Below are positions 2,824-35,446 of a stretch of 64,000 nt of DNA, piece by piece. The translations under genes and the position numbers were made by a program. The notes beneath the pieces are model-generated. The model searched no databases, had not been told where the DNA came from, and saw only the letters and a program-made list of their open reading frames with translations. Origin of the DNA: a virus (lineage: Duplodnaviria > Heunggongvirae > Uroviricota > Caudoviricetes > Crassvirales); the IMG/VR virus record IMGVR_UViG_3300040771_000130, positions 38,195 through 102,194 of that record; one strand, written 5' to 3'. Every line of letters starts with the position of its first letter. Position 1 is the stretch's first letter.

Positions 2824-2891
2824 AGATGGTTTAAGGAATCGAACCTTAATTCTCAGCTAGGCTTGGCGTATTACCATTCAGACCAACCATC
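2824..2891 (-). tRNA. tRNA-like element (non-canonical; anticodon arm not foldable)
   Basis: Minus strand has a 7-bp acceptor stem GATGGTT/AACCATC and a perfect T-arm TAAGG-TTCGATT-CCTTA (GGTTCGATTCC motif). The D-region has the conserved AA..GG..AA loop but a mismatched stem. No 5-bp anticodon stem could be drawn; total ~67 nt. Confidence 0.45.
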
Positions 2892-3105
2892 TCTATTATT
2901 AAAAATACCTTACAGTTTCACTATAAAATTTGTGGTCACTAATCCACATTATACGTTTAAATTAAGGTTTAATTCTGTTACCAGAATACAGCACATGTAT
3001 TACCTTAGCCGACAAGTGTTTTTAACTTATTTTACTTTGAGTCTCTCAAGCATTCTGAGGTATTTTAATTTGTGCTACTACAATGCTTTTTTCACACTTT
3101 GTTAA

Positions 3106-3276
3106 TTAATCTTTATAATCTTCAGGATATAATTCACTCATTTCATCGTGAGCATAATCAAAACCTTCCCAATTATCAACTCCTGCATTTTCTAAACAAA
3201 TTAACCAACTTAATTTCTTTATCATTGAGATATATTCTGATTTTTTGATAGTAATAGTTTCTTCCATTATTGACAT
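3106..3276 (-). CDS. small hypothetical protein (56 aa)
   Basis: Continuous minus-strand frame MSIMEETITIKKSEYISMIKKLSWLICLENAGVDNWEGFDYAHDEMSELYPEDYKD. It overlaps the nrdA stop by 10 nt and is below the ORF-track size cutoff. Confidence 0.25.
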   Translation of the reverse strand: MSIMEETITIKKSEYISMIKKLSWLICLENAGVDNWEGFDYAHDEMSELYPEDYKD

Positions 3277-4889
3277 GTGTTACACTCATTAATTTCCCTT
3301 GCAAACGATTGTGCTGCATTTTGACTAAACTGATAATAAAGTGTTTTAACACCTTCTTGCCAAGCATAAATATATAATTTATTAATTTCCTTAGTTTCTA
3401 CAGAAGGATGTATTGTTAAATTTACACTTTGAGATTGGTCAATAAATTGTTGTCTTTGAGCTGCTTGTAATACAATTTCTTTTGGTGAAATTTCAATAAA
3501 TGATTTAAAAACTTCTTTAGTTGGGAAATCTAGATGTTGAACAGAACCATCATTTTTAAGAATAGATTCCCATATAGAAGGTGTATCTAATTCGTATTTT
3601 TGAAGTTCCGCAATCAATGCTGGGTTTTTATAAACAGTTTTAATTTTAGCTAAATCTTTAATAAAATAATTAGATTTAATTGGTTCAATTCCCATTGAAA
3701 CTTGACCTAAAATAAAACTACTAGATTTTGTAGGTGCAATTGCTAACAATGTAGTATTTGCAAAACCTTCACGTAAAGATGTAATACCTAAATAATCGTG
3801 ACACCATTTAGAAGCATTATCACTTCTTTCGTTTAAAGTTTTAAATATTTTGTAATTAGCTTGCTTAGCTTCTAAACTTTCAAACTCAATAAGTTTTGAC
3901 TGTAAATAACTATGATAACCTAATACACCTAAACCAATAGCTCTATGATCTTTAGCAAATCTCCAAGCACGTTTCATTCCTGGTAATGTTTCAGATTTAG
4001 TAACAAAATCTGTCATTACAGCATTTAAAAATGTAACATATGTTTCAATAGCATCAGTTTTTTCAATTTCATCCCAATAAAGTAAATTAATTGAACCTAA
4101 ACAACATACAAATGAATTATATGTATCGTTAGGTAATGCTATTTCAGAACATAAATTACTATGTGTAATTTCTAATCCTAATTTGTTATACGGACTGTTT
4201 CTATTTACAGTATCTTTAAACATTAAATACGGAAATCCAAATTCACTTCTTCTTTGAATAACTTTTGCCCAAGTAACTCTTTTTTGAGAATTACCAGCAA
4301 TCATTTCTTCCATGAATTTATCAGTAATAGTTACACCATACTGTAAATTTTGAATAGGATTACCTTCAACACCAATGTCTAAAAATTCATTAATATCTGG
4401 ATGTTCAATAGGTAAATAAACGGCACAAGAACCTCTACGAGTTTCTGATTGTTTAAATACATCAACAATACTATCATAAATTTTAGCATAATGAACAGGT
4501 CCATCAGCATAACCACCAATAGATATTTTACTACCTCTTGGTCTAATATTTCCTAAATAGGCAGATGTTCCACCACCATATTTAGACATCATTCCGATTT
4601 CTCTACCTGCATTTAAAATACTATCTGAAGAATCATCTATGTTTGTTCCAAAACACGAAATAGCTAAACCTTTTTCTTTACCAAAATTAACCCATACTGG
4701 TGTTGATAATGAATAATAACCTTTTTTCATGTAAGATTCAAACTTAAAAGCAAAATCTTTAATTCCTAGTATTTTTTCCGCATGATTTGCAATTTCTTTT
4801 ATCCTTTGCTCAGGACTAACTCCTTCATTTAAATAACCTCTAGATAAGAATGTTCTAGAGTCATTGTTCAACCATTTGTAATCACTCAT
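3267..4889 (-). CDS. nrdA: ribonucleotide reductase class I large (alpha) subunit, short form without ATP-cone
   Basis: Active-site 'SNLCSEI' (NxCxE) motif, glycine-rich 'KYGGGTS', C-terminal Tyr-Tyr 'LYYQF' radical-transfer pair and terminal 'CNTCQ' Cys pair. ATGA-coupled to the beta-subunit gene. At 540 aa it lacks the N-terminal allosteric cone. Confidence 0.8.
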   Translation of the reverse strand: MSDYKWLNNDSRTFLSRGYLNEGVSPEQRIKEIANHAEKILGIKDFAFKFESYMKKGYYSLSTPVWVNFGKEKGLAISCFGTNIDDSSDSILNAGREIGMMSKYGGGTSAYLGNIRPRGSKISIGGYADGPVHYAKIYDSIVDVFKQSETRRGSCAVYLPIEHPDINEFLDIGVEGNPIQNLQYGVTITDKFMEEMIAGNSQKRVTWAKVIQRRSEFGFPYLMFKDTVNRNSPYNKLGLEITHSNLCSEIALPNDTYNSFVCCLGSINLLYWDEIEKTDAIETYVTFLNAVMTDFVTKSETLPGMKRAWRFAKDHRAIGLGVLGYHSYLQSKLIEFESLEAKQANYKIFKTLNERSDNASKWCHDYLGITSLREGFANTTLLAIAPTKSSSFILGQVSMGIEPIKSNYFIKDLAKIKTVYKNPALIAELQKYELDTPSIWESILKNDGSVQHLDFPTKEVFKSFIEISPKEIVLQAAQRQQFIDQSQSVNLTIHPSVETKEINKLYIYAWQEGVKTLYYQFSQNAAQSFAREINECNTCQ

Positions 4890-5863
4890 TAAAATAAATC
4901 GTTTTCTGTTATACTTTTGCTTTTTTTGTTGTAATCAATAGATTTTTTATAGAAAAAATCACCTTCTTTTGTAGAACTTATTTCAATATCAAACCATAAA
5001 GTTGGTTCAAGTAGTTCTATATTAATTTCAAAAGCGTTTTTCAAATCTATTTTATTTAAAGAATTATTAAATCTATTTTTAATAAATTCTTTAATTTGAT
5101 TTTTTGATAAGAATGGTAATTCACCTTTCTCAAATATCCAATCTAATATGTCACATTCTGCAGCGTAAGCTTTATGACATGCTGAATATATTAAATCTTC
5201 AAATTCTTTATCAAACCATTCAGGAAACTCATGTTTAATAATATTAATTATCTCAACACCAAAATTACCATGACAATCTTCTTCTTTACTTGTAGATTCT
5301 ACAACATTTGAAATACCTTTAAATAAATTTTTGTCTTTATTAAAAGACATCATTATTAAAAATTGACTAAATAGTGATACATGTTCTATAAATAATGAAA
5401 ATAGTAATACACTTTTTGTATACATTTTATTATCTACACTTCTAGAACCGTTTAAATACTTTTCTAAATATTTAATTCTATTTTGTATTGCGGGTACTTC
5501 AATAATATGTTTAAAATCTTCTTCAAGATTAAGTATTGTTAGTAATTTAGCATAAGCTTCTGAATGTCTACATTCACTTTCAGCAAAAGTCATTCCAACA
5601 TCAGCAATTTCTGAAATAGGCATTCGTTTATACATATCTGCCCAAAACGTTTTAACACTTACTTCAATTTGAGCAATAGCAAGCATTGTTTTTTTGATAA
5701 TATCTTTTTCTACATCAGTTGTTTTTGTGTAGAAATCTGAAATATCTGTTGTAAAATTATATTCTGAAGCTAGCCAATACGAATGTCTAATTGCATCACG
5801 ATATTTAATTAGTTCAGGGTATTCATACGGTATTAAATTTATTCTTTTATCGAATATACTCAT
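4889..5863 (-). CDS. nrdB: ribonucleotide reductase class I small (beta) subunit
   Basis: Di-iron ligand helices 'AESECRHSEAY' (ExxH) and 'FSLFIEHVSLFSQF' (ExxH) typical of R2/NrdB-NrdF; lies immediately upstream of nrdA. Confidence 0.8.
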   Translation of the reverse strand: MSIFDKRINLIPYEYPELIKYRDAIRHSYWLASEYNFTTDISDFYTKTTDVEKDIIKKTMLAIAQIEVSVKTFWADMYKRMPISEIADVGMTFAESECRHSEAYAKLLTILNLEEDFKHIIEVPAIQNRIKYLEKYLNGSRSVDNKMYTKSVLLFSLFIEHVSLFSQFLIMMSFNKDKNLFKGISNVVESTSKEEDCHGNFGVEIINIIKHEFPEWFDKEFEDLIYSACHKAYAAECDILDWIFEKGELPFLSKNQIKEFIKNRFNNSLNKIDLKNAFEINIELLEPTLWFDIEISSTKEGDFFYKKSIDYNKKSKSITENDLF

Positions 5864-5883
5864 TTATTGTTTTGATTTATTAT

Positions 5884-6450
5884 TTATCTCCATACTGTCC
5901 CTCTAACTTCTGTTAGTATTAGTACTTCATTATGAGGATCTACATAAGTTCCTAATTCTTGGTTATCTGGTATAATAACTCCTAATTCTTTTTGTAAACT
6001 CTCTTTTAATTTTTGATCTTTGTATAATATTTGTTTTACTTTTAATAGAAAGTTCACACCTGCTGGATTTCCAGAATATACTTCTGCCCAAAATCTTAAT
6101 ATTAATTTTTTAGCATCATCTCCAAATTTGGAATATTGACTACTAAGCAAATAATTATATTCATTAAGATATTCTTCAGGAAATTTAAATACATAAACAG
6201 CTTTATCATTTATATCTATACATTTTACAAACAATTCATTATTTGTAAGTTTATGTTCATATTTAGTAAATTCAGGATTTTTAAAATCAAATTTATGTAA
6301 TATAAATATACAGTTTTCATACTCATTGTTTTCATCAAACAAGTAAGTATTTAATAGATTTGGTAAAAATTTTATGTTTAAATCTAGTATTTCTGACATT
6401 AGCGGTAATAAATACGATTTTGATTTATTGTAGTGAGGTTTATTTATCAT
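5884..6450 (-). CDS. hypothetical protein (start uncertain)
   Basis: 200-aa ORF in the track (5884..6486). The first Met would overlap the upstream endonuclease gene by 47 nt; internal Met at 6450 ('MINKPHY') or ~6399 is more plausible. No motif. Confidence 0.4.
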   Translation of the reverse strand: MINKPHYNKSKSYLLPLMSEILDLNIKFLPNLLNTYLFDENNEYENCIFILHKFDFKNPEFTKYEHKLTNNELFVKCIDINDKAVYVFKFPEEYLNEYNYLLSSQYSKFGDDAKKLILRFWAEVYSGNPAGVNFLLKVKQILYKDQKLKESLQKELGVIIPDNQELGTYVDPHNEVLILTEVRGTVWR

Positions 6451-7159
6451 AATAAAGTTTAAAATTAGATTTATTCTTAACCTCATTTCGTAACCAACTC
6501 CCTAAAGTTTGATATTTAATACTAAATATTTCAGAAACTTCTTTAATAGAATTGTAAATAATTCCACTTTTTGTATCAATTACTTTTTTTTGTAATTTAT
6601 AATTAGGAATTCCTAATTTAGCAATTCTCATTTTTTTTATTGCTTCTTGAGATTTTGGTTTATTGACATTACCTTTACTAATATTATTTCTCCATTCTTC
6701 TGAAATTTTTCTACCTTTTCTAGAATTTGACATTTTTTTACGAGTTTCTTCTGAAGCAACTTTACCTATGTTTTTAAAACCCATAGACTGACGAACTTTT
6801 TCTGAGTGAACTCTACCTGTATTTGCCAAACTTATTTTATTTTTAGTTTCTTGAGATAATTCTCCAGAACTATATGTAGATTGTACTAATGTACAATTCA
6901 AACCATCAGTTACAACATTATAAAAATCTTGATAATATCTTTCTTTATCGTTTAATAATAAAGTATCACATTCTTCTAATATTTCAAATTTGTGATTTTC
7001 TATTCCATATTTATTAAAAGATCGATTTAATTTTATTTGTAATTTACTTTTTTTTATATTTTTATATTCTTTGAATCGTCTAGTAATATCTACAGCTTGT
7101 CCTATATAAATTCGTCCAGGCGGACTTTCTATTTTGTATATACCTGTAATTTTACTCAT
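6440..7159 (-). CDS. GIY-YIG homing endonuclease with NUMOD3 DNA-binding repeats
   Basis: N-terminal 'GIYKIESPPGRIYIGQAVDITRRFKEYKN' is a textbook GIY-(10)-YIG...R...E module. It is followed by three NUMOD3-like repeats ('ETKNKISLANTG', 'EETRKKMSNSRKG', 'EEWRNNISKGN'). Free-standing, beside nrd genes as in T4-like phages. Confidence 0.8.
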   Translation of the reverse strand: MSKITGIYKIESPPGRIYIGQAVDITRRFKEYKNIKKSKLQIKLNRSFNKYGIENHKFEILEECDTLLLNDKERYYQDFYNVVTDGLNCTLVQSTYSSGELSQETKNKISLANTGRVHSEKVRQSMGFKNIGKVASEETRKKMSNSRKGRKISEEWRNNISKGNVNKPKSQEAIKKMRIAKLGIPNYKLQKKVIDTKSGIIYNSIKEVSEIFSIKYQTLGSWLRNEVKNKSNFKLYYDK

Positions 7160-7163
7160 TAAC

Positions 7164-8198
7164 TTAATTAACTTCTATAAAGTCATCATTTAACATTAAA
7201 CTTCCGTTATTTTCATAAACTTCTTGACTAAAATCATAAAGTTTATTTTTCCAGTGGTAATAAATTAAGTCTAAATTTTCATTTAAACCTGTATATTTAT
7301 AACCAGCTTTTGTTGTAAAACCATTAATTGCAGCATTATGCCATTTATCACTTATTTCAAATACGTGAGGAACTTTTTCACCTCTACCTATAAAAATAAA
7401 TTTAAACGGTGCTAATGCATAATCTTGTAATCCTAATTGTTTACAAATAGTATCGAATGCTCTTGTATAAACAGATTCTTGAAAATAGTAACAGTATTTA
7501 ATAAAACTTTTTGAAAAATCTTCAGCTTTAGAAGAACCTGTTTTAATATCTTCCATGTAAACAATCTTACTTTTGTGGTCAATTGACATTTTATCAATTA
7601 TTCCACGTAAAGTAAATCCTTTATAATTATATTCAAACTTAAATTGATAGTGGTTCTCAAAGTCATTATTAAACAAATGATGAGTGTGTTTATGATTCAG
7701 TAATAAATTCACACATTCTTTAGCATCATCGTTTTCTTTTTGAGTTACTACAATTTTATCTTTTGTTTGAATTTTAATATTAACATAATTCCAAAACTCG
7801 TCTTTATCAAAGTTAGCAATTAATTTATCTTCAACTTTAACATTACTCCAAAATCCATTATGTCTTACAATTTTTAATACTGTATTTTTATCAGGTACTG
7901 TGTCATAATTATCTATAATAATATCACACAACGTACCTAATGTTGCAGTTGGTTTATTATCATCGTAAACAACATATAATGATTTACATATATTATTACC
8001 TGTTACAGTATCTAATAATAAGTCATCTACTAATGAACCAAATTTTAGACCATCACTTTCTGGATTTGATGGTCTAATTAAAGCTTTTGGTCCATTTCTA
8101 TCAAAATCACTTATTCGTGAATATGATAATTTTAAATCTATAATTTCTTCATTATTTAGCAATTGATCTAACTTGCTCTCTTTCGTTTTCTCCTTCAT
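7164..8198 (-). CDS. putative PD-(D/E)XK-family nuclease
   Basis: C-terminal half contains 'GIIDKMSID...IVYMEDIKTG' resembling the D...(D/E)xK catalytic core of RecB/Cas4-like nucleases. Weak; no Cys cluster. Confidence 0.35.
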   Translation of the reverse strand: MKEKTKESKLDQLLNNEEIIDLKLSYSRISDFDRNGPKALIRPSNPESDGLKFGSLVDDLLLDTVTGNNICKSLYVVYDDNKPTATLGTLCDIIIDNYDTVPDKNTVLKIVRHNGFWSNVKVEDKLIANFDKDEFWNYVNIKIQTKDKIVVTQKENDDAKECVNLLLNHKHTHHLFNNDFENHYQFKFEYNYKGFTLRGIIDKMSIDHKSKIVYMEDIKTGSSKAEDFSKSFIKYCYYFQESVYTRAFDTICKQLGLQDYALAPFKFIFIGRGEKVPHVFEISDKWHNAAINGFTTKAGYKYTGLNENLDLIYYHWKNKLYDFSQEVYENNGSLMLNDDFIEVN

Positions 8199-8442
8199 TT
8201 ATAATTGTTAGCTCTATTACTAAATCAATTAGTTTGTTAGAATGTTTCAGTTGTAATTTTAAATCTTCATTATCTTCATCAAAGGCTAATGTCCATTCTA
8301 CATTTTCAATAACTTTATCTAAATATAATCTAGCTGAAGTATAATCTTCTAAAATTAAATACATTTGTAATTTAATACATTCTTTGTCGCTTAATGCAAA
8401 ACGGCATGACTCACTAATTTTTTGTAATAGGTTTTTTTTCAT
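8152..8442 (-). CDS. hypothetical protein
   Basis: 96-aa ORF, acidic/coiled-coil, in the minus-strand array. Confidence 0.45.
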   Translation of the reverse strand: MKKNLLQKISESCRFALSDKECIKLQMYLILEDYTSARLYLDKVIENVEWTLAFDEDNEDLKLQLKHSNKLIDLVIELTIINEGENEREQVRSIAK

Positions 8443-8451
8443 TTTATTAAA

Positions 8452-8892
8452 TTAAGTTATTTTTATCCATACTCCTGGATTTTCTTTATCTACACTATAA
8501 AACTTATTGTCTATTTTTAAAGCAAAAGGTATAACACAATCCATATTGTCATCAACAATAATATCGTGTGCTGTTAATAAATCTAAACTTACTTGAACAA
8601 TATTGTGAAAATCAAATTTCCTTTTACTATCTCTTACAAAATGAAATCCTATTTCTAGTGGTAATTTTTTACCTTTAATTTGTTTAGCAAAATCTTCTCT
8701 TAATTGCTCAATTAAATTAGGTTTATTTACATAACTTTTAACTAATTTTTTACCTGATGAATACGTTTGTATTCCTAAATTGTTTAAATATGCTTTTGTT
8801 GTTTTACTTGCAAAACTTCCTTTACTTGTATTTATACGTGAATTTTTTGAACTCGGTACGTTATAAGGGATAAAAATAAGATTGTCATTCAT
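8452..8892 (-). CDS. hypothetical protein
   Basis: 146-aa ORF. Upstream region has a TATATTTG (TAnnTTTG, Bacteroidetes -7-like) box ~23 nt before the ATG. Confidence 0.5.
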   Translation of the reverse strand: MNDNLIFIPYNVPSSKNSRINTSKGSFASKTTKAYLNNLGIQTYSSGKKLVKSYVNKPNLIEQLREDFAKQIKGKKLPLEIGFHFVRDSKRKFDFHNIVQVSLDLLTAHDIIVDDNMDCVIPFALKIDNKFYSVDKENPGVWIKIT

Positions 8893-8970
8893 AATTATGT
8901 ATATTTGTTAATTGCAAATATAATAAAAATAAATGACAAATCCTATTAAAACAATATTTATTTTATATAA

Positions 8971-9648
8971 TTACCATAAATTATAGTTTTTTATAATTAA
9001 CGTGTCATAAAGATATTCATTACAATCAAGAAAGATATCAGAGTTATTACTTAGTTTAGCATCTGTATTTACAATAATTTTATTATTATCTTTATCAATA
9101 TATTTACATAAATCTAAATGGTCATCTGTTAAAAATAAATAAACAATATTTTTTTTATTATTAATTTCTTTAATAACACATCTAATAAAGTTTTTCCAAA
9201 CATCAGTATAATCTTTATTTTCTTCAACACACATTGACACATTTAAAAATAAGAACCCGTTTTCAGAATAATCATATAAAGAATTATCAAAATCTGATAA
9301 TTTCATTTGATTACCGTAAACACTACTTAAAATACAATCTCTAAATTCTCTTAATTCTATAGGTATGTCAGAGTTTAAGGTGGAGGTTGTTAAAATACCT
9401 CTACCTACACCTGACGATCTTAAATCTTTTACAGGCTTATTGTCAATTATTACAACTTGTAAGTCATCGTAACTACAATCTTTAAAAGGTTGAAACAATC
9501 TTTGTTGTTTTGGATATACTGATTTACCTGATAAATAAACTTGATTTATAAAATTTTCAAGATGTGTAAAATATTCACTTTCATAAAAATCGTAAAGAAT
9601 AGTCGCCCAGTCTAAACCTAATTCTTTTTCTATTTTAAATACACTCAT
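8971..9648 (-). CDS. hypothetical protein
   Basis: 225-aa ORF overlapping the downstream end of the amidoligase gene by 14 nt (coupled). Confidence 0.5.
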   Translation of the reverse strand: MSVFKIEKELGLDWATILYDFYESEYFTHLENFINQVYLSGKSVYPKQQRLFQPFKDCSYDDLQVVIIDNKPVKDLRSSGVGRGILTTSTLNSDIPIELREFRDCILSSVYGNQMKLSDFDNSLYDYSENGFLFLNVSMCVEENKDYTDVWKNFIRCVIKEINNKKNIVYLFLTDDHLDLCKYIDKDNNKIIVNTDAKLSNNSDIFLDCNEYLYDTLIIKNYNLW

Positions 9649-11371
9649 CTTTTTTTTCTTTAATTTCTAAATCAGCTTTTAATGAAGTTGGAGTATAGTA
9701 GTAAGGATCTGAAAAAGTTGAATAATTTTTTAATGAACTTAATGAATCTAACAATTCTTTAGTTATAAATTTAGTATTTTTTACAACATACTGATTTTTT
9801 TTTAAACCATTATTTTCTCTTGGTTTAAGAGGTTGATAATTAATTTTTAATTTTGAAAAATCAATATCTTTTTCCCAAGATATACTATGATCTGTTCTAA
9901 TTTTACTTTCAGTACCTAAAATATTACCATTTAAAGTTTGATATTGAATATTTTCTTTTCTATTGTAAACATAATCTGTAATATAATCTTGAAATAAATC
10001 TAAATCTTGAATTTTATTTTTATAAGTATAAACTTGATTACGTAAAATATCGACTAAAGATAAGTTATTTAAATATCCAGGATTTTGTAAAATATTATCT
10101 TGATTTTTTACTACAAAATTTACAACTAACGCGTTCATCAAAACAAACGGAATTATTTTGTTAGATTCATACGTAGGTGTGTGTATTCTAAATTCAATAG
10201 TTTGTTTATTACCAAACAATAAAGGTATCATATTATATAACAAATATCTTGGTTTTATTAACCATTTTTGATTACAATTTGGATCTGCAGGGTGTGACAC
10301 AACATTATCAAGGTTGTTACCTATTGCTTCAAAACGGTGACCCATTGATAAGTACTCGTAAATAACACCAAAATTGTAATCAATATTAGAACTATCGATA
10401 ACTCTGTCTAATTTTGAGAGTATTTCAAAAGTAGGTAATGGTGCCGAATAGTTTTTATTTTTAATGTTGTAGTTATACTTTTTATATAATGGAAACATTG
10501 CAAACACTTCATCTTGAATCATCATTCCTACCTTAAAAAAAGCAAGCATAAATTCCTTTGTTCTAGGTAAGTTACCTAAGTGTAAATGCATCGAACAAGT
10601 TTTATCATCATATTCTGTACGTTTTTTTAAAACATTAGTAATATCACATATTGCTTGCAAACCTTTTTCACCACCCATTGGTACAGTAACATATTCAATA
10701 CCTGATATAGAACCATCTCGTAATGGAATTAAACCATATTGACTTAGAGTTTTTTTAGAAACAAAACCTTTGGTTGTCTCAAATTCTAAACCAAATGTTA
10801 AATCTTCTAAAATAGGAGCATAACTTTTAATTGATGAAGAGATTATTGGATTGTAATTTAAGTTATAACTTTCCAAATAGCTATCTAGAATTCCTTTTGA
10901 GTCATATGGAAGACTAGTTTTATAACCTTGACTTGGTACAATTATTTTTGAAAATTCTAAAGCTGGTAATTTTGAAATATGGTAATAATTACCATTTGAA
11001 AATCTTTCACGATATACTTTACTATTGTTAAAAATATTATTATCAAATATTAAATATTTTTTTCCATATTTATTTATAACTACAGAATGTATTTCTGAAT
11101 TATTAAAATATCCAAAAATTAATTCATCATCAACAACTTCTACAACTCCTTCAACAATATTAAAATCAAGATGTACATATTTATTTACGCTATGGTTAAA
11201 CACTATTAATTTTGTTTCTTCTCTGTAGTATTTGTCACCAATTAAATAACAATCTCCAGAATTTTTAATTTCTGGATTACCAATCTTATAATATTCTTTA
11301 TTGAATTTTTTACATTGAGAAATAGGTAATTCTTCTCCTTTTATTGTAATTACTTTTTTTTGAGCACTCAT
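9635..11371 (-). CDS. amidoligase_2-domain (glutamine-synthetase-like COOH-NH2 ligase) protein with N-terminal extension
   Basis: Central region has the three hallmark blocks of the 'putative amidoligase enzyme' family: 'LTFGLEFETT' (GvElE), 'LRDGSISGIEYVTVPM' (DGS..G.E.vSpp) and 'CSMHLHLGN' (HvHvG). The ~190-aa N-terminal domain is unassigned. Confidence 0.55.
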   Translation of the reverse strand: MSAQKKVITIKGEELPISQCKKFNKEYYKIGNPEIKNSGDCYLIGDKYYREETKLIVFNHSVNKYVHLDFNIVEGVVEVVDDELIFGYFNNSEIHSVVINKYGKKYLIFDNNIFNNSKVYRERFSNGNYYHISKLPALEFSKIIVPSQGYKTSLPYDSKGILDSYLESYNLNYNPIISSSIKSYAPILEDLTFGLEFETTKGFVSKKTLSQYGLIPLRDGSISGIEYVTVPMGGEKGLQAICDITNVLKKRTEYDDKTCSMHLHLGNLPRTKEFMLAFFKVGMMIQDEVFAMFPLYKKYNYNIKNKNYSAPLPTFEILSKLDRVIDSSNIDYNFGVIYEYLSMGHRFEAIGNNLDNVVSHPADPNCNQKWLIKPRYLLYNMIPLLFGNKQTIEFRIHTPTYESNKIIPFVLMNALVVNFVVKNQDNILQNPGYLNNLSLVDILRNQVYTYKNKIQDLDLFQDYITDYVYNRKENIQYQTLNGNILGTESKIRTDHSISWEKDIDFSKLKINYQPLKPRENNGLKKNQYVVKNTKFITKELLDSLSSLKNYSTFSDPYYYTPTSLKADLEIKEKKDECI

Positions 11372-11374
11372 ATT

Positions 11375-13285
11375 TTATTTTTTAACAGGTTTTTCAATAA
11401 AATCTTTTAATGTGTGATTTATCAAACTTAGTGTATTTAAAGCACTTTTTATATCTTCATTACTTGCCCAATCAGCAAATTCCAAAATAGTTCCATCTAT
11501 ATCTTCAGCATGTTTTTCAAAAGATTCAGCAATTAATTCTTTTACAAATATTTCGTCAGCTTCTAAATCTGTAATTTTACTTTCTAATTTTTCAGAATCT
11601 ACTATATCTTTTTCAATTTTTGAAATAGCTTCAACTGAACTATCAAACAAAACTTTATTAAATTTAGAATTAATTTTAGCTTCTGGTAAAATAATGACAG
11701 ATGTTTCTGATTTTACAGGTTGTAAATCTTCTCTTTTAGACCATTTAACTAATATTCCGTTATTAAAAGAATATGTTTTTTCAAAACCAAGTTCTGTAAA
11801 TGTACCAGTATATCTTTTACCATCTAACATTGCAATACTAGGTGTGTTTTCAGTTGCTAGGTTTATTACAGGATGTTTAGACATATGTGATAATGCTTCA
11901 AAATCAACATATTTAATACCATATTTTAAGTTGTTTTTAAGATTTAAAGCCATTGAATAATCTGCAAAATTTTTTAATAAAACCCCATCTACAAAATAAT
12001 AAAATGGAACTGTTGATAGATCTTCATCAAATATAATGTCACCAACTTGTGCAGATAAATTATAAATAAAATAACCTGTATCGTAGTTAAAAGTTAAACC
12101 TTTAAAACCATTAAACATACTTTGAGCTCCAGCTGTTGCTAACGATACAAATTTAAAACCATAGTTTTTAATATATACAAATACTCCTGAAATTAAAGCA
12201 CCTCTACTCCAGTATCTTAAACTTTTATTGTAAACTTTATCTTTATAAAATGAAATTGGGTTAACAGTTAAATCATTGTGTAAATTAGTTAATACAGAAA
12301 CTGTTGGGGAAGTGTTAACTGAAGGTTTTGTATCATATATATCATAATAATCATCAGAAAAAGTTTTTTTATAATTTTGACTATATACAATTGCTTCGTT
12401 TTGACCTGCGTTCCTCCGACTTATCTTATGTTTTTCAGCATTTGCAAAATCACCATCAGTAATAATATATACTGTGTTATAGTCAATTTGTGTTTTATCT
12501 TTAGCTGTAGCACCTAAAACCATTAATCCATTTTTTAGTGATGAAAAAAACATGCTGTTTTCATTTTTACAATAAACATTCATAGGTCTCTCTTCTGTTT
12601 CAATAGAAACTGTTGTACCTTGAGTATGTTTAGATGCTCCAGACCATAAATATAATTTGTTTGGTTCATCAATCCATGTCCAAGCTAGAGCTGCTGCTCC
12701 AACATATTCACTTAAAACTTTAAAATTTTTAGTCTTGTAAAGTATTTCACCTAATATTTCACTATCAATTTTAGTTCTTGTTATTTCATATGGATGACCA
12801 CTAGGATAGTGTTCAGTATATGTAACTTTAGTTTCAATACCATATTTTTTAGCTAAATCTTCATGATTTCTTAAAGTACCATTATGACAAAATATCATAC
12901 CGTAACTATCATTAGCTTTATTAGCACCAAATCCAAATGGATGAGCATTATGTTCATTTATTGCCATACCTTGACTAGGTTGTCTTGTATGACCAATCAT
13001 AATAGGTGTCTGTATAGGTTTAATTTCTCTATCAACAATAAAATCTGTATATAGTTTGTCAAAACCGATACCATATTGTACATCACCATCCCAAGATAAA
13101 CCACAAGACATTTTACCACGTTCAATATTATAAATTCCTAAAATATGAACACCATTAACATCTAAGTTTTCAGGTGTATTTGTGGCTTGACCAAAAATAC
13201 CACAGTTTAAAGAATTAGATTTGTAACCAAATATAAAATTACTAATGTATTGTAATAATGTTAATATTAAAATTATTTTTACCAT
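11375..13285 (-). CDS. class-II (Ntn-type) glutamine amidotransferase domain protein
   Basis: A hydrophobic leader is followed by 'NCGIFG', the N-terminal nucleophile Cys signature (CGI[FV]G) of GAT-II/Ntn amidotransferases (PurF/AsnB/GlmS type). Remainder (~600 aa) unassigned. Confidence 0.55.
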   Translation of the reverse strand: MVKIILILTLLQYISNFIFGYKSNSLNCGIFGQATNTPENLDVNGVHILGIYNIERGKMSCGLSWDGDVQYGIGFDKLYTDFIVDREIKPIQTPIMIGHTRQPSQGMAINEHNAHPFGFGANKANDSYGMIFCHNGTLRNHEDLAKKYGIETKVTYTEHYPSGHPYEITRTKIDSEILGEILYKTKNFKVLSEYVGAAALAWTWIDEPNKLYLWSGASKHTQGTTVSIETEERPMNVYCKNENSMFFSSLKNGLMVLGATAKDKTQIDYNTVYIITDGDFANAEKHKISRRNAGQNEAIVYSQNYKKTFSDDYYDIYDTKPSVNTSPTVSVLTNLHNDLTVNPISFYKDKVYNKSLRYWSRGALISGVFVYIKNYGFKFVSLATAGAQSMFNGFKGLTFNYDTGYFIYNLSAQVGDIIFDEDLSTVPFYYFVDGVLLKNFADYSMALNLKNNLKYGIKYVDFEALSHMSKHPVINLATENTPSIAMLDGKRYTGTFTELGFEKTYSFNNGILVKWSKREDLQPVKSETSVIILPEAKINSKFNKVLFDSSVEAISKIEKDIVDSEKLESKITDLEADEIFVKELIAESFEKHAEDIDGTILEFADWASNEDIKSALNTLSLINHTLKDFIEKPVKK

Positions 13286-13292
13286 TTTTTTA

Positions 13293-14105: not shown

Positions 14106-14111
14106 ATATTT

Positions 14112-16511: not shown

Positions 16512-16525
16512 TATTTTTATTTATT

Positions 16526-17918: not shown

Positions 17919-17919
17919 A

Positions 17920-18351: not shown

Positions 18352-18353
18352 TT

Positions 18354-26773: not shown

Positions 26774-27693
26774 TAAAATACATTTAATTGTTTAACATTA
26801 GATTTTTGATCATATTCTATATCACAAATATCACGGTAACTATTAGTACAATAAATACCATCAAAATATTTATTTAATTCATCAAAACCTTTAGAAAAGA
26901 TTCCGTGAGTTACAATAAGATAGATTTTACCAGTATAAATTTGCTTTAACTTTTTTGCAATATTTAAAAATGTTGCACCACCATCGCAAATATCATCAAT
27001 AATAATTATATCTTTATCTAATAGTTGTGTTGAAATTGGAATTTCCACTTTACTTAATTTACCATTTTCATCTCTAGATTTACTACAAGTAATAATATCT
27101 CCTTTATAACCAATTTGTTCAGCTATTTTAAAGATTTTTTTATTTGCACCAGCATCTGGAGATATTAGAATAAAGTTATCCCATTTTACATTTTCATCAC
27201 CATATAGTGTACTAATTGTATCATCAACCAGTAGTGTATTATCGAGTTTTTTAAAATTATTTAAACAAGCTTCTAATACATCACTATGTGGATCAATTAC
27301 TGTTACAGATTCAAAATTTAAACTATTAATAATAGGACAAATCACATCTTTAAGATAATTATTAGAACCTTCTTCAAATTTTCTATCACTCCTACTTCCT
27401 AAAAAATATGGTGTATATAAATGAATTTCTTTAATCCCTAATTCACGTAATGATTTAGTTGCACAAATAATTAATTCTAAATCTTTAAAATTGTTCAATC
27501 TAGCTTTAATTTGCACAATATTTTTACTTTCAGCATTCCAACTTTGATAATCGTAACCCTCCATTCTACTTGTTCCAGTATTATGAAAAGTTCTTTTTAA
27601 TGGAATTTTAACTTGTTGTTGACCATCAGGAAATTTAGAAACCTCAAACTTAATATCTGAAGTTTCATTATTTGTTAAGTTTAATATTTTCAT
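26773..27693 (-). CDS. prs: ribose-phosphate pyrophosphokinase (PRPP synthetase)
   Basis: PRPP-binding loop 'IIIDDICDGGATF' and a second PRTase-type block 'ILISPDAGANKK'; ~306 aa as for Prs. Confidence 0.65.
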   Translation of the reverse strand: MKILNLTNNETSDIKFEVSKFPDGQQQVKIPLKRTFHNTGTSRMEGYDYQSWNAESKNIVQIKARLNNFKDLELIICATKSLRELGIKEIHLYTPYFLGSRSDRKFEEGSNNYLKDVICPIINSLNFESVTVIDPHSDVLEACLNNFKKLDNTLLVDDTISTLYGDENVKWDNFILISPDAGANKKIFKIAEQIGYKGDIITCSKSRDENGKLSKVEIPISTQLLDKDIIIIDDICDGGATFLNIAKKLKQIYTGKIYLIVTHGIFSKGFDELNKYFDGIYCTNSYRDICDIEYDQKSNVKQLNVF

Positions 27694-29258
27694 TATAATG
27701 TATTATTTAAACGTTCACGAATTTCATCTAAAGTAGTTTCTTTTACAAGTTTACCATCTTTAAATACTGTTGTAAGTAACCCTAATTTTTCTTGTTCATA
27801 ACAACATTGATCTTCAACATACAATTGATTGTGTTTAGAATATACTTGTAATAAACCTTTTTTAGATTTTTTAGTACCATCATCAGTAATTGGATCTTTA
27901 AAGATTTCTCTAGCTTCAGTAACTACAATTTCTTTACCTGTAGCAGGATTAATACTTTTTCTAGTTAATTCACCATAAGTCGCTTTCATTGCAAATCCAA
28001 AAGTATCTCTTGTATTGTATTGATAGGTAAATGACCCAATTCCAAATACTATATTTGTACTTGCAAATCCTTTAGCTTTAAGTCTTTCACATATTTGAAT
28101 AGCTCTTTCTGCAGTGATAGAATCACCATAAATAGCTCCAATATGGGAATCTAATACTTTATAACCCTGTTCGTTGATAGTACCACCAAAAGTATCCCAA
28201 AGTAATTCTATTACTCCTTTAAATTCTTCTTTAATTCTATTATAACCAACACCTCTAGATTCAACGTCTTTACAACATTCTTCATAAGAAGAATATTCTA
28301 AATTCCATTCATGTCCACAAATAATATCTACAGGATCACCACTATCAGGTCTAATTACTAATTTACCATCTCTAGCTAATATTTCAGATTTAAGTTGTGG
28401 TAAATATTCAGTACAAACTTTCCATAAATCCCATGTATCAGATACTACTGATAATATACCTTCTGGATATAGATTTAATAATCTTTGAAAAGTTTCTATT
28501 TCTGATTCTTTAGTACCCATACACATAACACTATGTTCAGTAGCAGGCACACTTGCACCAATAAGACCAGTAGCGTTATAGGATGACTCCAATTGATAGA
28601 TTGCAGGAATTGTATCAGTTCCAGTAAAGAAAAGTAAATGACCCATTGCACTAATAGTAGCAGATTCAATACTAGACATCCCACGCATAGAAAAGTCGTG
28701 AGCTTGCCATTGAACCTCTTCAGTATTACCTGTAGTTTCAATAGCATATTTATTAAGAATTTTTTTATATTCATAAGCAAGTGTTGCTGAAGTTATAGGT
28801 TGCCATAACGTTGCACTAATTAATGTTTCAAGATAGTTTACTAACCAACCAAAATCAGGATGTGTGTTAGTAATTGTTAACATTGGAACACCAATGGAAC
28901 ACAAAGTACCTTCGTCTAAAGCTTTAATTTCAATAGGTAGATAACCTAAATTCCATAAATCTTCAATATGTTTAGTATCTACATTACAATGACGTTTGTA
29001 TTCATCAATAATACCAATTTTACTACTACCTAGTTTATTTGCTTCTTCAGTAGTTTTAGGTTTTTCAAAAAATTCTTTATTAAATTTGTCAATAAGATAT
29101 TCTTTAATAAAATGTTGTAAACCAAAAGTAACTACTTTTTCAATTCCAGGTATTCTAGATTTACGGGGTGTAAAATTAGAATATAGTTTAGTCATACCTT
29201 CAGGATACATTTTAGTATGATGAATTTTGTAACTATCTACATATAATAATGGATTCAT
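27693..29258 (-). CDS. nadV: nicotinamide phosphoribosyltransferase (NAMPT/NadV)
   Basis: N-terminal 'LLYVDSYKIHHTKMYPEG' matches the NAMPT 'ATDSYKVTHYKQYP' start; ~520 aa; co-located with prs (supplies PRPP). Confidence 0.6.
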   Translation of the reverse strand: MNPLLYVDSYKIHHTKMYPEGMTKLYSNFTPRKSRIPGIEKVVTFGLQHFIKEYLIDKFNKEFFEKPKTTEEANKLGSSKIGIIDEYKRHCNVDTKHIEDLWNLGYLPIEIKALDEGTLCSIGVPMLTITNTHPDFGWLVNYLETLISATLWQPITSATLAYEYKKILNKYAIETTGNTEEVQWQAHDFSMRGMSSIESATISAMGHLLFFTGTDTIPAIYQLESSYNATGLIGASVPATEHSVMCMGTKESEIETFQRLLNLYPEGILSVVSDTWDLWKVCTEYLPQLKSEILARDGKLVIRPDSGDPVDIICGHEWNLEYSSYEECCKDVESRGVGYNRIKEEFKGVIELLWDTFGGTINEQGYKVLDSHIGAIYGDSITAERAIQICERLKAKGFASTNIVFGIGSFTYQYNTRDTFGFAMKATYGELTRKSINPATGKEIVVTEAREIFKDPITDDGTKKSKKGLLQVYSKHNQLYVEDQCCYEQEKLGLLTTVFKDGKLVKETTLDEIRERLNNTL

Positions 29259-32980: not shown

Positions 32981-33792
32981 TATTTTAATTTTTGTTTTAC
33001 TAATTCTTGAATTCTACGATTTTGTGCAGAAAATGATGTTGTATCTGTAATAGGTTTATCAGCAGATATATAAATATTAGCAACATCTTTCAATGATAAG
33101 CAAGGTTTATTCATAAAAATATATTTTTCAGCTTTTTCTTTTGATTTATAAAAAATATAATCACTTTTTTGAGATGTTGAACAAATTGTAGGTGAAGATA
33201 ATTTTACATCTTTTAAATTTTTTAAATCTATATAATAGACATCTTCATCATTTTCAAAAATATCAACACCATCTTCAGTTGTGAATAATGGTTGAATTAA
33301 TTTTAAACATTGATCTAATTCATTACTCCATATATTTTTAGAATTTTCTAAATAAATTATATTATTAATTAATTTAATTTCTAATAACATATTAATAGGA
33401 TATGTTGAACTTTTACATTTTTTATTAAAATTAACTTTATCACCAATAGTAAATATTTCACCATCGCTTAGACGTTTGACTGAATAAATATTATAGTAAT
33501 TAGGTATTAGATTATTACCAACTGTAATTTGTGATGAAGCAGAGTTATATGTTCCGTTATTAGTTATATTGTAAATATTTGAAGTTTCTTTACCTTGATA
33601 TGATAATATTTCATAATCTTTTTCAACAACAAGTTGCCAAAATTCTGGATGATTTTCTGGTTGAATCCAATTAGAATTTACATAATAACCATTATCAAGC
33701 TGCGGAGCTATAATATGTCCTAGTTTATGACTTCCTGGATAAGTTTTTATAAGTTTGTATTTCATAATACTTAGTTTACAATTGTTGCCCAT
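32980..33792 (-). CDS. hypothetical protein
   Basis: 270-aa ORF, ATGA-coupled. Confidence 0.5.
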   Translation of the reverse strand: MGNNCKLSIMKYKLIKTYPGSHKLGHIIAPQLDNGYYVNSNWIQPENHPEFWQLVVEKDYEILSYQGKETSNIYNITNNGTYNSASSQITVGNNLIPNYYNIYSVKRLSDGEIFTIGDKVNFNKKCKSSTYPINMLLEIKLINNIIYLENSKNIWSNELDQCLKLIQPLFTTEDGVDIFENDEDVYYIDLKNLKDVKLSSPTICSTSQKSDYIFYKSKEKAEKYIFMNKPCLSLKDVANIYISADKPITDTTSFSAQNRRIQELVKQKLK

Positions 33793-35186
33793 TTGTCTTG
33801 TCTTTCACAATATATAGAATAAGCACCAGCATCAGCATAGATATTTACAGTAGTATCGCTATTTGAAGTTTCATAAAAATCAGTTGTTTTTATAATACTT
33901 GATCTACCCAACAAACTTCTAATTTTAGTCCCAACAGGATACAATCTTTTAGCTTTTTCTAATAATGTTTCTTCTTTAACTTCAATAGTTTTATTTAAAA
34001 CATATTTTTTAAATTGCTCTAAAGTTATTTCTGTGTAACCTATTTTAATTTCAGGATATGTTGTACAATCATGAAAACTTGGAAAATGTGCATAATTAAC
34101 AGATAATTCTATTTTACTATAAGAATTAACACTGTGTGTATTACAATAATCTACAAATAAATCATCATCTGATTTTAAACACCACTTTTCATGTAATACA
34201 AAATCAATTTTAGGTTCAATATAATGTTCAATACTGTTAATGTCAAACTTAGAAGTTTCATTTAATATTGCAATTATTTGAGTTCTATTTTCATTATATT
34301 CAAATTTTGTAATATCATAAATTACATTTGATAGTGATTTAACTTTATCACCAATAAAGAATTGACTACCTTCATTATTCTCAACTTTAGTAATAGTTTC
34401 AATTGTTTCAATTACTTTAAATTGTGGTAATGGTTCGATAGTTTCTTTAATAACAGTTTCTTTTAAAACATATTGTTTAAATTGTTCAAATGTAATTTCA
34501 GTAAAAACAAAATTTGAAGAAATGTTATGATTGTTATAAGACAGTTTTCTACTTTCAGTCATATTCCACGACCAATTTTTAAAGTCATCAAAATCATTTT
34601 TATTATGATTAAGATAATAAATATATTGATTAATTAAAAATCCTGCACCTATTTTAGGTAATTTATTTATTAATTCTAAACAATTGCCGTCAGTTATTTT
34701 TATACACCATTTCTCAGGTAATACAAATTCAGGATCTTTAGTTATAAATTGAGCATCATAAGCTTCTTTTGTTGATGATTTAAATCGATCTTGTAGATTT
34801 TTATAAGTAATAAGGGTTTTGTGCCAACTTAAATTAAATAATTCATTTGCTTCATTATGGTTTGAAGTTTTATAAATTGTATTTACTTTTGCTAAACCAT
34901 ATTCTGCAATACATTCAACATATTCAGGAATAAATGTTTTCATAGCTTTATTATATTTTATGAATTTATCTTGTTCAATACACAGATTTAACCAATGTTT
35001 TTCTTCAGGTGTTGCATTTCTTATAACACTATAATTGTTTTGAACAGGTGTTTTAGAGAAATGTTTACCATCCATTGAAATCCAAAATTTAATATACAAT
35101 TTTTCATTTCTTATTTTATTTATAAAATTGTCACCAAAAACATAAATTTCATTTTCAATTAAATCTTCTTTTTTTATAGTTTTCAT
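33771..35186 (-). CDS. hypothetical protein with internal tandem domain duplication
   Basis: 471 aa. 'FVLPEKWCIKITDGN...FTEITFEQFKQYVLKETVIKE' is repeated as 'FVLHEKWCLKSDDD...YTEITLEQFKKYVLNKTIEVKE' about 185 aa later. Confidence 0.5.
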   Translation of the reverse strand: MKTIKKEDLIENEIYVFGDNFINKIRNEKLYIKFWISMDGKHFSKTPVQNNYSVIRNATPEEKHWLNLCIEQDKFIKYNKAMKTFIPEYVECIAEYGLAKVNTIYKTSNHNEANELFNLSWHKTLITYKNLQDRFKSSTKEAYDAQFITKDPEFVLPEKWCIKITDGNCLELINKLPKIGAGFLINQYIYYLNHNKNDFDDFKNWSWNMTESRKLSYNNHNISSNFVFTEITFEQFKQYVLKETVIKETIEPLPQFKVIETIETITKVENNEGSQFFIGDKVKSLSNVIYDITKFEYNENRTQIIAILNETSKFDINSIEHYIEPKIDFVLHEKWCLKSDDDLFVDYCNTHSVNSYSKIELSVNYAHFPSFHDCTTYPEIKIGYTEITLEQFKKYVLNKTIEVKEETLLEKAKRLYPVGTKIRSLLGRSSIIKTTDFYETSNSDTTVNIYADAGAYSIYCERQDKWATIVN

Positions 35187-35387
35187 AATATTTGTTAATT
35201 AGTTATTATTTGTTATTTTATTATTCATAATATTTATTAATTGATTAAAATAAAATGTGAGTTTATCAGCCGCTGCTCCACCGTTACAATTCCTCTAGGA
35301 CTATTTAAAGTATTCAAATTGCACTGAGATGACTCACATTTTAAAAAACTAACTAAAAAAAACTAAACATTATGAAAATTTAGTTTG

Positions 35388-35446
35388 TGGAGGATTGGGG
35401 ATTCGAACCCCTGTTTTCAAATCTGTTACCTAACAGACTATCCTCC
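35388..35446 (-). tRNA. tRNA-like minihelix element lacking an anticodon arm (~58 nt)
   Basis: Minus strand has acceptor GGAGGAT/ATCCTCC, a canonical D-arm TCTG-TTAGGTAA-CAGA and a T-arm GGGG-TTCGAAT-CCCC. Only 10 nt (TTTGAAAACA) separate the D- and T-arms. Confidence 0.4.

Follow-up and report, generated by a model that had tools for sequence, protein, structure and literature searches.

Three families of tRNA-like elements with deleted, vestigial or variable anticodon arms in a tmRNA-encoding clade of marine crAss-like phages

The 64,000-nucleotide stretch analyzed here (the window; positions 38,195 to 102,194 of IMG/VR record IMGVR_UViG_3300040771_000130) is part of a crAss-like phage genome of about 25% G+C, and it carries three intergenic tRNA-like elements, all on the minus strand and codirectional with their flanking genes: E1 (68 nt; positions 2824-2891), E2 (69 nt; 20105-20173), and E3 (59 nt; 35388-35446). 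Each element belongs to a family that occupies a fixed genome position in a clade of marine crAss-like phages that encodes transfer-messenger RNA (tmRNA) and is related to Cellulophaga phage phi14:2; deletion has removed the anticodon arm from E3, whereas E1 keeps a vestige of it and in E2 it is free to vary. Our leading interpretation, which we hold tentatively and rate a little short of an even chance, is that E1 to E3 are genes for nondecoding, tRNA-shaped RNAs that act by mimicry of the top half of tRNA, in the case of E3 and perhaps E1 on trans-translation.

The original prediction placed elements with perfect 7-bp acceptor stems and canonical T-loops at these minus-strand positions, and the sequence bears this out. 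The acceptor strands are GATGGTT/AACCATC in E1, GGTTGAG/CTCAACC in E2, and GGAGGAT/ATCCTCC in E3, and the discriminator is U in E1 and E2 (U73) and A in E3 (A73). The T-stem has 5 bp in E1 (TAAGG-TTCGATT-CCTTA) and E2 (GTGGG-TTCGATT-CCCAC) and 4 bp plus a conserved A49-A65 mismatch in E3, (A)GGGG-TTCGAAT-CCCC(A); across the 64 kb, the string GGTTCGAWTCC is found at E1, E2, and E3 and nowhere else, three occurrences against 0.00 expected from 100 shuffles. In E1, where the D-loop is AAUGGUAA and the D-stem has one mismatch, pairing of leader and trailer at 2821-2894 extends the acceptor helix to 10 bp, and the position of the anticodon arm is taken by a vestigial 3-bp hairpin with a 3-nt loop, AGC-CUA-GCU, which covaries with AGU-CUA-ACU in a relative (L081; relatives and their loci are designated by L numbers). 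The earlier statement that E1 has no foldable anticodon stem is therefore right as regards a canonical arm but overlooked this hairpin. E2, as described at the outset, has a poor D-arm (the D-loop GG is present, with no convincing version of the D-stem) and an arm with two G-U pairs, GGCUC-UGUAAUG-GAGUU, in which a 5-bp stem closes a 7-nt loop with G instead of U at position 33. E3 likewise conforms to its description as an element with a good D-arm and no anticodon arm: the dinucleotide AG separates the acceptor stem from the D-arm, TCTG-TTAGGTAA-CAGA (UCUG-UUAGGUAA-CAGA as RNA), with a good 4-bp stem, and a 9-nt linker, TTTGAAAAC (UUUGAAAAC as RNA), stands where the anticodon arm would be. 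The fold z-score of E3 is -3.36.

One possibility raised with the original prediction was that these are genuine noncanonical tRNAs, and that standard detectors simply overlook decoding tRNAs with unusual anticodon arms. We consider this highly improbable. No standard cloverleaf was returned at any of the three loci: ARAGORN calls none of them at default or 95% thresholds, its relaxed thresholds and its mitochondrial models yield nothing but contrived folds, in which the anticodon has 4 bases or the acceptor stem is broken, and Rfam has no match there at the gathering score. With permissive reporting, the Rfam tRNA model RF00005 scores E1 at 23.6, E2 at 27.8, and E3 at 27.9 bits against a gathering cutoff of 29 bits, and the alignment of E3 has the anticodon arm deleted. 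E2 thus falls only 1.2 bits under the cutoff and has a 5-bp/7-nt arm, the ARAGORN mitochondrial model labels it Tyr(gta), and one allele at the same locus in a relative (L010) has a canonical arm; E3, however, has no arm at all, E1 has only its 3-bp/3-nt hairpin, position 33, which is nearly universally U in tRNAs, is G in the arms at the E2 locus of the window, L013, and L006, and putative anticodons differ among close E2 alleles (UAA, AUU, UCG, and AAC) in loops of 5 to 10 nt. Syntenic loci were collected from IMG/VR and from JGI metagenomes via neighboring genes and conserved DNA cores, and when a canonical anticodon arm is defined as a 5-bp stem and 7-nt loop with U33 and a purine at 37, it is present in 1 of 13 alleles at the E2 locus (L010) and in no member of the E1 or E3 family; of three control tRNAs drawn from these data, two have it. 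The suggested comparison with syntenic positions in related phages thus turned up a canonical arm in L010 alone; what the families keep is the top half. All 22 sequences of the three families have the D-loop GG, the dinucleotide that docks with the T-loop, and the families persist at syntenic sites in phages whose neighboring proteins are only 40 to 56% identical. Since the anticodon arm is mostly noncanonical and the D-loop GG invariant, the selected module appears to comprise the acceptor stem, the T-arm, and the elbow, with the decoding half dispensable.

Constraint is most evident in the E3 family, which comprises five distinct sequences (the window, L170=L171, L172=L164, L173, and L214) of uniform architecture and 59 to 60 nt. 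In all but L214, the element follows an open reading frame (ORF) ending in ...PPKWL* (PPRWL* in L172 and L173), and in the window it begins 17 nt past this ORF. The fold is paired in 92.5% of cells (100% in the acceptor stem), and 5 of 16 pairs have changed on both sides, a count reached in 0 of 500 shuffles and not approached by slid registers. Conservation of the unpaired parts exceeds that of the stems: the linker has a mean pairwise identity of 0.91, the T-loop of 0.90, and unpaired positions of 0.89, compared with 0.67 in the upstream ORF and 0.46 in the downstream spacer, and the D-loop and linker match the T-loop in conservation. E3 is thus constrained over its entire length, and its G-U pairs, which lie on the gene-sense strand, argue for an RNA rather than a DNA cruciform. 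A covariance model of the family (R1) recovers only E3 members, at 78 to 88 bits, and its weak match to the E1 family (19 to 25 bits) suggests that the two families may be paralogs. All members keep G1-C72, G2-C71, U70, and A73 in the acceptor; the 3:70 pair is G-U in three of the five (L170/L171, L173, and L214) and A-U in the window and L172. Both tmRNA-bearing genomes have G-U, and both genomes without a detected intact tmRNA gene have A-U (n=4), tmRNA presence or absence in relatives being judged on part of each genome. E3 matches only the two ends of the Rfam tmRNA model RF00023 (19.3 bits, E=9e-4; gathering cutoff, 47 bits). Architecturally, it is a putative stand-alone tRNA-like domain, that is, a tmRNA minus its message part.

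The trailer of E3 (35340-35386, minus strand) combines an AT-rich hairpin, AAACUAAA-(11 nt)-UUUAGUUU, with a U-rich run on its 3' side; the hairpin is conserved, L171 and L172 showing compensatory or wobble changes, and the trailer looks like a terminator, although a GC-biased terminator scan did not call it. Scans around E1 to E3 for terminators and for sigma-70 promoters were at chance level, a consensus promoter scan being uninformative for this host. The gene downstream of E3 (33771-35186) yielded no relatives when searched with peptide patterns, and a first DNA pattern for E3 matched only an unrelated 121-kb phage (L163); a metagenome scan returned 49 chance matches and one true homolog, L214.

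Related genomes supply a context that was not visible when the window was first read: the clade encodes tmRNAs, one relative has E3 next to its tmRNA gene, and a pseudoknot derived from tmRNA is joined to E1. In phi14:2 (L347, NC_021806.1), ARAGORN finds a tmRNA-like gene at 4031-4502 on the plus strand with the tag GSSVQKLAMVA*; it scores 46.0 bits on RF00023, against the cutoff of 47 (E=2.6e-16), has a proper 5' end (GGGGUCGACUGGUUUUGA), G3-U70, and A73, and carries no annotation in the RefSeq record. Two long intergenic regions near the left end of this genome are transcribed early and persistently at levels that outdo those of most genes and have been reported as noncoding RNAs of unknown function (bioRxiv 10.1101/2020.03.07.982082). 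The tmRNA lies in one of these abundantly transcribed regions, an assignment to the 'g005-g006' junction that we infer from coordinates. A second T-arm-bearing element is found at 1760-1850 of phi14:2. Among relatives with E3, L171 has a full tmRNA at 2758-3118, 3.7 kb upstream of its E3, and the tmRNA of L214 ends about 130 nt upstream of the element. ARAGORN detects no tmRNA in the window, where the syntenic site (around 38750) holds the same terminator hairpin and then a small ORF, and E1 to E3 all lack the resume codon, the tag reading frame, and the set of four pseudoknots. Our literature search found no report of tmRNAs or anticodon-less tRNA-like elements in crAss-like phages.

The link between E1 and tmRNA lies in a conserved noncoding RNA of about 214 nt (2892-3105, minus strand) that follows a stop codon and stands directly 5' of E1. 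Blastn shows it to be colinear with the phi14:2 tmRNA in the latter's 3' half, past the tag stop codon (positions 211-274 and 336-364). Its block A (3045-3100, minus strand) forms the hairpin AAGCAUU/AAUGCUU with the loop AAAUACCUCAG, and this loop pairs with block B (GUGAAACUGUAAGGUAUUU; 2895-2922, minus strand) to give a pseudoknot. In five sequences, that of the phi14:2 tmRNA included, the pseudoknot formed by the block A loop and the motif GUGAAGCUGUA is paired in 100% of cells, and 9 of 18 pairs have changed on both sides, with 0 of 500 shuffles as high. No Rfam family matches 2892-3105, and RF00023 has no match at E1. We describe E1 as the predicted tRNA-like 3' terminus of an RNA in which a tmRNA pseudoknot survives. 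The arrangement has a counterpart in L164, where a retained tmRNA-internal hairpin is followed by a self-contained tRNA-like element of 83 nt. As a general signal, GTGAARCTGTA was rejected, the matches in the window outside block B falling within annotated ORFs.

Within the E1 family itself, many compensatory changes (for example, GAUGGUU/AACCAUC versus GAGAAGU/ACUUCUC) leave all 12 pairs of the acceptor and T-stems intact in L081, L083, and L089, and by inspection of the four sequences, 48 of 48 cells are paired; at L144, the closing helix and the trailer are kept and the T-loop is lost. The trailer, CTTTATTTTAATAAGTAAAATT (2802-2823, minus strand), runs up to the ATG of the next gene and is conserved in the window, L081, L083, L089, and L144. 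That gene, which starts 22 nt past E1 (2334-2801, minus strand), encodes a protein of the cpYpsA/SLOG (circularly permuted YpsA) family (PF12694, E=3e-22) with a predicted nucleotide-binding fold. Four of the five members at the E1 locus (window 2850-2858, L081, L089, and L144) present CUA, the anticodon of amber suppressors, in a hairpin loop, in hairpins that differ in their stems and loop sizes. These loops may be the trace of a suppressor-tRNA ancestor; stop-codon recoding as their function is ruled out by standard code usage in the window (64 TAA, 3 TGA, and 1 TAG stops; 86% coding under code 11).

Such traces bear on whether the elements are nonfunctional pseudogenes, decaying phage tRNA or suppressor-tRNA genes in which the most stable helices happen to be left. 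The CUA loops in a phage that uses the standard code, the lost T-loop of L144, and near-canonical E2-locus alleles (L013, L007, and L010, with 56.6, 46.1, and 46.0 bits on the Rfam tRNA model), which suggest a tRNA ancestor, all fit such a history. In contrast, compensatory double substitutions hold the acceptor and T-stems together in all three families, the D-loop GG has not been lost from any sequence, E3 is more conserved than the adjacent coding sequence, and the elements stay at their sites despite the divergence of the neighboring proteins, so that we think decay very unlikely. The term "minihelix-like tRNA relics" under which the elements were introduced is partly supported: the comparative data strengthen "minihelix-like", whereas "relic" misleads, since purifying selection clearly acts on the top half and the constraint on E3 extends over its whole length.

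The E2 locus combines constant ends with a hypervariable body. Thirteen syntenic alleles lie upstream of a primase homolog that is 82 to 89% identical in amino acid sequence to that of the window (56% for L015), and they share the acceptor stem, the T-arm, and a trailer (TCAATATTAACTAAAATTA...ATG). The two acceptor strands lie 55 to 188 nt apart, and the interiors defy alignment with each other: they include type I and type II (Leu-like) D-arms and a hairpin inserted in the D-loop, and L004 has no anticodon arm at all. Across the 12 pairs of the top half, 98.6% of cells are paired and nine pairs show compensatory change. Identical alleles were recovered from independent samples (L003=L012, L004=L005, and L015=L016), which makes assembly error unlikely. 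From this pattern, E2 would appear to be a tRNA-derived element with a required top half and an interior that is either unconstrained or diversifying, and a role in processing or stability and a role as a decoy are both compatible with it.

The surroundings of E2 are also partly conserved. Upstream, between the stop codon of the preceding gene (20201-20761) and E2, lies the hairpin AGGGAU-UUA-AUCUCU (20177-20191, minus strand), in a flank also found in L007 and L011. Downstream, the trailer CAATATTAACTAAAATTAAAAAATT (20080-20104, minus strand) is followed by a Cys-rich small ORF of 64 amino acids (19885-20079, minus strand), and between the locus and the primase gene of relatives (L001-L013), the same conserved trailer precedes a hypervariable, shuffled mosaic of small ORFs, such as MKEIFEKLVAKAKEIE... 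(47 amino acids) and MIKYIKKLIKKQRLL...CYNRLKKL (about 60 amino acids). The type of interior does not track the small ORFs downstream. The trailer motif TAACTAAWWTWAA was rejected as a general promoter or translation initiation signal, since it is not enriched (24 matches versus 19.6 expected). In L014, a GC-rich terminator hairpin takes the place of the element, and phi14:2 has no element upstream of its primase gene, where the gap measures only 49 nt.

That the 3' half and trailer are the best-conserved part of this locus could recall an attachment site (att), in which the 3' portion of a tRNA or tmRNA gene of the host is copied; genes of both kinds are common integration targets, and former att sites had indeed been put forward as a possible origin. 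We find this explanation scarcely credible. Both acceptor strands are present and covary, the stems are complete, and T-stems differ between close relatives; the 3' end of E2 retrieved 11 tRNAs among the 120 genome matches listed, with no Bacteroidota tRNA among them; and no integrase is found among the 38 proteins scanned against Pfam or PHROGs. The acceptor of E2 resembles that of some proteobacterial tRNA-Cys genes.

A hypervariable interior next to a well-conserved primase gene, with identical alleles in independent samples, is also what might be seen if the elements were decoys or sponges for host defenses or toxins that act on tRNAs, such as enzymes by which the acceptor end or the body of a tRNA is modified or cleaved, and the E2 interior reflected an arms race. 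The phage encodes an RNA ligase (16526-17524, minus strand; PF09414, E=2e-11), the kind of enzyme with which phages such as T4 repair cleaved tRNAs, and the three families offer different acceptor stems and discriminators. Phage tRNAs are documented counterdefenses against tRNA-cleaving systems (PMC11555353, PMC13096335). Most of the characterized tRNA nucleases, however, read the anticodon or the variable loop, which these elements lack, the variability of the E2 interior is explained equally well by an absence of constraint, and our literature search found no published decoy without an anticodon arm. We accordingly regard a decoy function as quite unlikely.

A simpler proposal is that the elements are pure processing punctuation, RNase P and RNase Z signals at which polycistronic early or middle transcripts are cut or ended and from which the released RNA has no role of its own. 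The elements are intergenic and on the strand of the flanking genes, E3 starts just past an ORF and is followed by its terminator-like hairpin, and L014 has a terminator at the very position of E2; the E2 locus conserves only those parts that RNase P, RNase Z, and the CCA-adding enzyme recognize, while its interior drifts between 55 and 188 nt; the element 3' of the L214 tmRNA gene could serve to mature the 3' end of the tmRNA; and the t-elements of plant mitochondria provide a documented precedent (PMC1920247). Other features of the elements fit less well. The unpaired D-loop and linker of E3 are as conserved as its T-loop and more so than its stems, which a cleavage signal would not need, and this whole-length constraint argues that E3, at least, does more than mark a processing site. 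In addition, only three of the approximately 20 intergenic gaps of >150 nt in the window hold such an element, which argues against a general system of punctuation, and the leader and trailer of E1 form 3 extra bp, a pairing beyond the acceptor that usually disfavors RNase P cleavage. Processing as the sole function is a serious alternative that on balance we doubt.

We return to mimicry of the tRNA top half as our preferred interpretation. We suggest that E1 to E3 would be transcribed with their flanking genes within the minus-strand transcripts of the replication module and that host RNase P and 3'-processing enzymes would recognize the top half and excise the RNAs, with the CCA-adding enzyme recognizing it as well. 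RNase P and the 3'-processing and CCA-adding enzymes recognize the top-half surface of tRNA, minihelices being among their substrates. Once released, the RNAs would act by imitating the top half of tRNA. Host trans-translation may by analogy be the most specific target in the case of E3 and perhaps of E1, with a domain-only RNA titrating SmpB, the protein that fills the space of the missing anticodon arm. This target is suggested by that occupancy, by the tmRNA- or alanine-type acceptor of E3, by its tmRNA gene neighbor in a relative, and by the precedent of mycobacteriophage DS6A, which is taken up below.

Several observations weigh against this interpretation. E3 has a proper D-stem, which is absent from the tRNA-like domains of tmRNAs, and its score is better with the tRNA model than with the tmRNA model (27.9 versus 19.3 bits), whereas the DS6A element reaches 34.7 bits on the latter and has the 5' signature UGGUGGUCGAC. 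The 3:70 pair of E3 in the window is A-U and not the alanine identity pair G3-U70, and a full tmRNA is not present at the syntenic site of the window. E2 has no tmRNA feature at all, given its U73 and its tRNA-Cys-like acceptor, and SmpB mimicry does not explain its hypervariable interior. The closing helix of E1 is 9 to 10 bp long, which together with the loss of the T-loop in L144 suggests that the E1 locus may need only this helix. Finally, the families are small (4 to 13 sequences), and their members are related to each other.

A bolder version of the same idea, and one that we advance as speculation that is unlikely to hold in full, is that the phages have assembled an anticodon-less tRNA-like toolkit of molecular mimics from their own tmRNA and tRNA genes, in which E3 would block or redirect ribosome rescue in the host during infection and an arms race would pit E2, with its invariant acceptor and hypervariable body, against a host factor recognizing the top half of tRNA. 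Such a toolkit, if real, would constitute a natural class of RNA inhibitors of trans-translation or tRNA surveillance. If the elements are expressed and act as proposed, phages would be keeping "half tRNAs" for a nondecoding function, in genes that escape tRNA finders or are rejected by them and stay unannotated in genome records, as is the case for the DS6A element, the phi14:2 tmRNA, and the preprimase element of Suoliviridae described below. The proposal, if true, would also tie Crassvirales, which exceed every other phage order in abundance in the human gut and are common in the sea, to the manipulation of ribosome rescue, and the phi14:2 "long noncoding RNA" would gain a testable identity as a tmRNA. 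It would further provide a natural comparative test of which parts of tRNA suffice for RNase P, the CCA-adding enzyme, EF-Tu, AlaRS, and SmpB. The E2 locus, with its constant ends and its interior of 55 to 188 nt, resembles the engineered "tRNA scaffold" with which RNAs are expressed; it may be such a scaffold of natural origin, or it may record conflict between host and phage.

The remainder of the window is that of a crAss-like phage. It encodes a Crassvirales major capsid protein (PF23898, E=2e-172), a portal protein, a large terminase, a DNA polymerase, and a ribonucleotide reductase, with genes for replication and nucleotide metabolism on the minus strand (1-43000) followed by structural genes on the plus strand. 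A megablast search with positions 1-20000 found no close DNA match in the deposited phage collection; phi14:2 (Steigviridae, marine) is the closest cultured relative by primase, at 39% identity, and has the same gene order around the primase gene. The RNA ligase gene, which may have a bearing on tRNA repair, lies within a cluster of GGCT, peptidase C26, COOH-NH2 ligase, GATase, and amidoligase genes, and phi14:2 has an ATP-grasp gene at its site. A GIY-YIG/NUMOD3 homing endonuclease gene (6440-7159, minus strand) is found among the replication module genes; other genes encode a nicotinamide phosphoribosyltransferase (27693-29258, minus strand) and, just 5' of the large terminase gene, a GroEL-like chaperonin (48617-50098, plus strand).

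Near the switch in orientation, a gap of about 1.2 kb between annotated genes (41407-42630, minus strand) contains no ORF of >59 amino acids and is conserved as a region in L164 and L171; within it, 42150-42310 comprises three colinear blocks homologous to phi14:2 3127-3288, the second region of abundant noncoding RNA in that phage. The sole ARAGORN call in the window, a "tRNA-Ser(tga)" at 42018-42114, is in this gap, where a T-arm-like hairpin (AGTGG-TTCAAAT-CCACA) stands in a conserved block of about 90 nt. We do not accept it as a tRNA: it has no Rfam tRNA match, its fold z-score is -0.47, and the conserved block extends 45 nt beyond its 3' end.

Comparable elements were encountered in other phages. 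The unrelated 121-kb phage L163 (IMGVR_UViG_3300010218_000003) has elements of 78 nt (5132-5209) and 192 nt (4530-4721) on its minus strand, both with a perfect acceptor stem and T-arm, uncalled by ARAGORN and situated within a cluster of normal tRNA genes, which suggests that top-half-only elements may be more common across phages. The gut crAss-like phage cr125_1 (L346, NC_055900.1; Suoliviridae) has an unannotated noncanonical tRNA-like element of about 82 nt at 7918-7999 (GGGAGAU...UAUGG-UUCGAAU-CCAUC-CUCUCCC-A), 18 nt 5' of the DNA primase gene, as do NC_055897.1 and loci L068-L080; it is likewise uncalled by ARAGORN and gives nothing from Rfam at the gathering score. Its association with primase, in a different family of Crassvirales, mirrors that of the E2 locus.

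Among known systems, the nearest to E3 is the RNA of mycobacteriophage DS6A, which is listed with a tmRNA sequence consisting of the tRNA-like domain (TLD) only (Hudson, Lau & Williams 2014, PMC4131195; tmRNA Website tmID 11587). We located this 80-nt element at 28478-28557 of L348 (JN698994.1), in the gap between gp33 and gp34 and upstream of a gene annotated as DNA polymerase III; it is unannotated in GenBank and aligns to RF00023 over its 5' signature and P2 hairpin. Both RNAs are phage encoded and intergenic, have an acceptor stem and T-arm without an anticodon arm or message domain, and share A73, G1-C72, and G2-C71. In contrast to the DS6A element, E3 is 59 nt instead of 80 nt, has a true D-stem and no P2, has A3-U70 in the window where DS6A has G3-U70, lacks the ..UGGnUUCGAC 5' signature, and has the lower RF00023 score (19.3 versus 34.7 bits); the host phylum and the phage order also differ. 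As summarized in the same paper, an engineered TLD-only molecule strongly inhibits tmRNA whether or not it can be charged with alanine, perhaps by titrating SmpB (Mao et al. 2009, as cited in PMC4131195), and inhibition that is independent of chargeability, as that summary has it, is consistent with the G3-U70/A3-U70 polymorphism of E3. The architecture of E3 is TLD only, but its sequence is nearer to that of a tRNA minus the anticodon arm, and we do not class it as a tmRNA.

With the tRNA-like domain of tmRNAs in general, E3 shares the T-arm, the missing anticodon arm, and, in most members, the alanine-type acceptor identity set, although UUUGAAAAC only loosely resembles the UUUUGA...GAC of the phi14:2 tmRNA. 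The RNA upstream of E1 shares the covarying pseudoknot and the GUGAAGCUGUA motif with that tmRNA, whereas the tRNA-like part of E1 is contiguous at the 3' end and that of a tmRNA is formed from its 5' and 3' ends; E1 and E2, with U73, also lack the alanine identity G3-U70/A73. Canonical phage tRNAs have in common with E1 to E3 the 7-bp acceptor, the GTTCGAWTC T-loop, the D-loop GG, and an intergenic position on the gene strand, and some E2-locus alleles of relatives pass the Rfam cutoff as canonical tRNAs do; E1 to E3 differ in having no functional anticodon arm, subcutoff scores, and no ARAGORN call, and the lengths in their families range from 55 to 188 nt.

Nondecoding RNAs of tRNA shape are known elsewhere. 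The mascRNA at the 3' end of MALAT1 is tRNA-like, is recognized by RNase P and RNase Z, and has a reduced anticodon arm, and the stable RNAs C and D of T4 are nondecoding and mimic part of a tRNA. The t-elements of plant mitochondria are tRNA-like processing signals whose cleavage has been shown experimentally (Forner et al. 2007, PMC1920247). Like t-elements and mascRNA, E1 to E3 are tRNA-like, nondecoding, and predicted to lie within longer transcripts on the strand of the flanking genes; those precedents are eukaryotic or organellar, unlike the phage elements, and the whole-length constraint on E3 exceeds the need of a cleavage signal such as a t-element. The bacterial Y RNA YrlA also carries a tRNA-like domain (Chen et al. 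2014, PMC4201824), and it and T4 RNAs C and D, like E1 to E3, are nondecoding RNAs that imitate part of a tRNA (T-arm, D-arm, acceptor-like stem). In YrlA, however, the RNA ends form a Ro-binding stem and not an acceptor, and the window has neither an Rfam YrlA match nor, among the proteins scanned, a Ro/Rsr gene. Thus, nondecoding tRNA-like domains, and a TLD-only RNA in one mycobacteriophage, were known before; to these, the present phages add a strongly selected 59-nt mini-tRNA that has a D-stem, the fusion of a tRNA-like element with a pseudoknot of tmRNA origin, and a locus in which the ends are invariant and the body is hypervariable.

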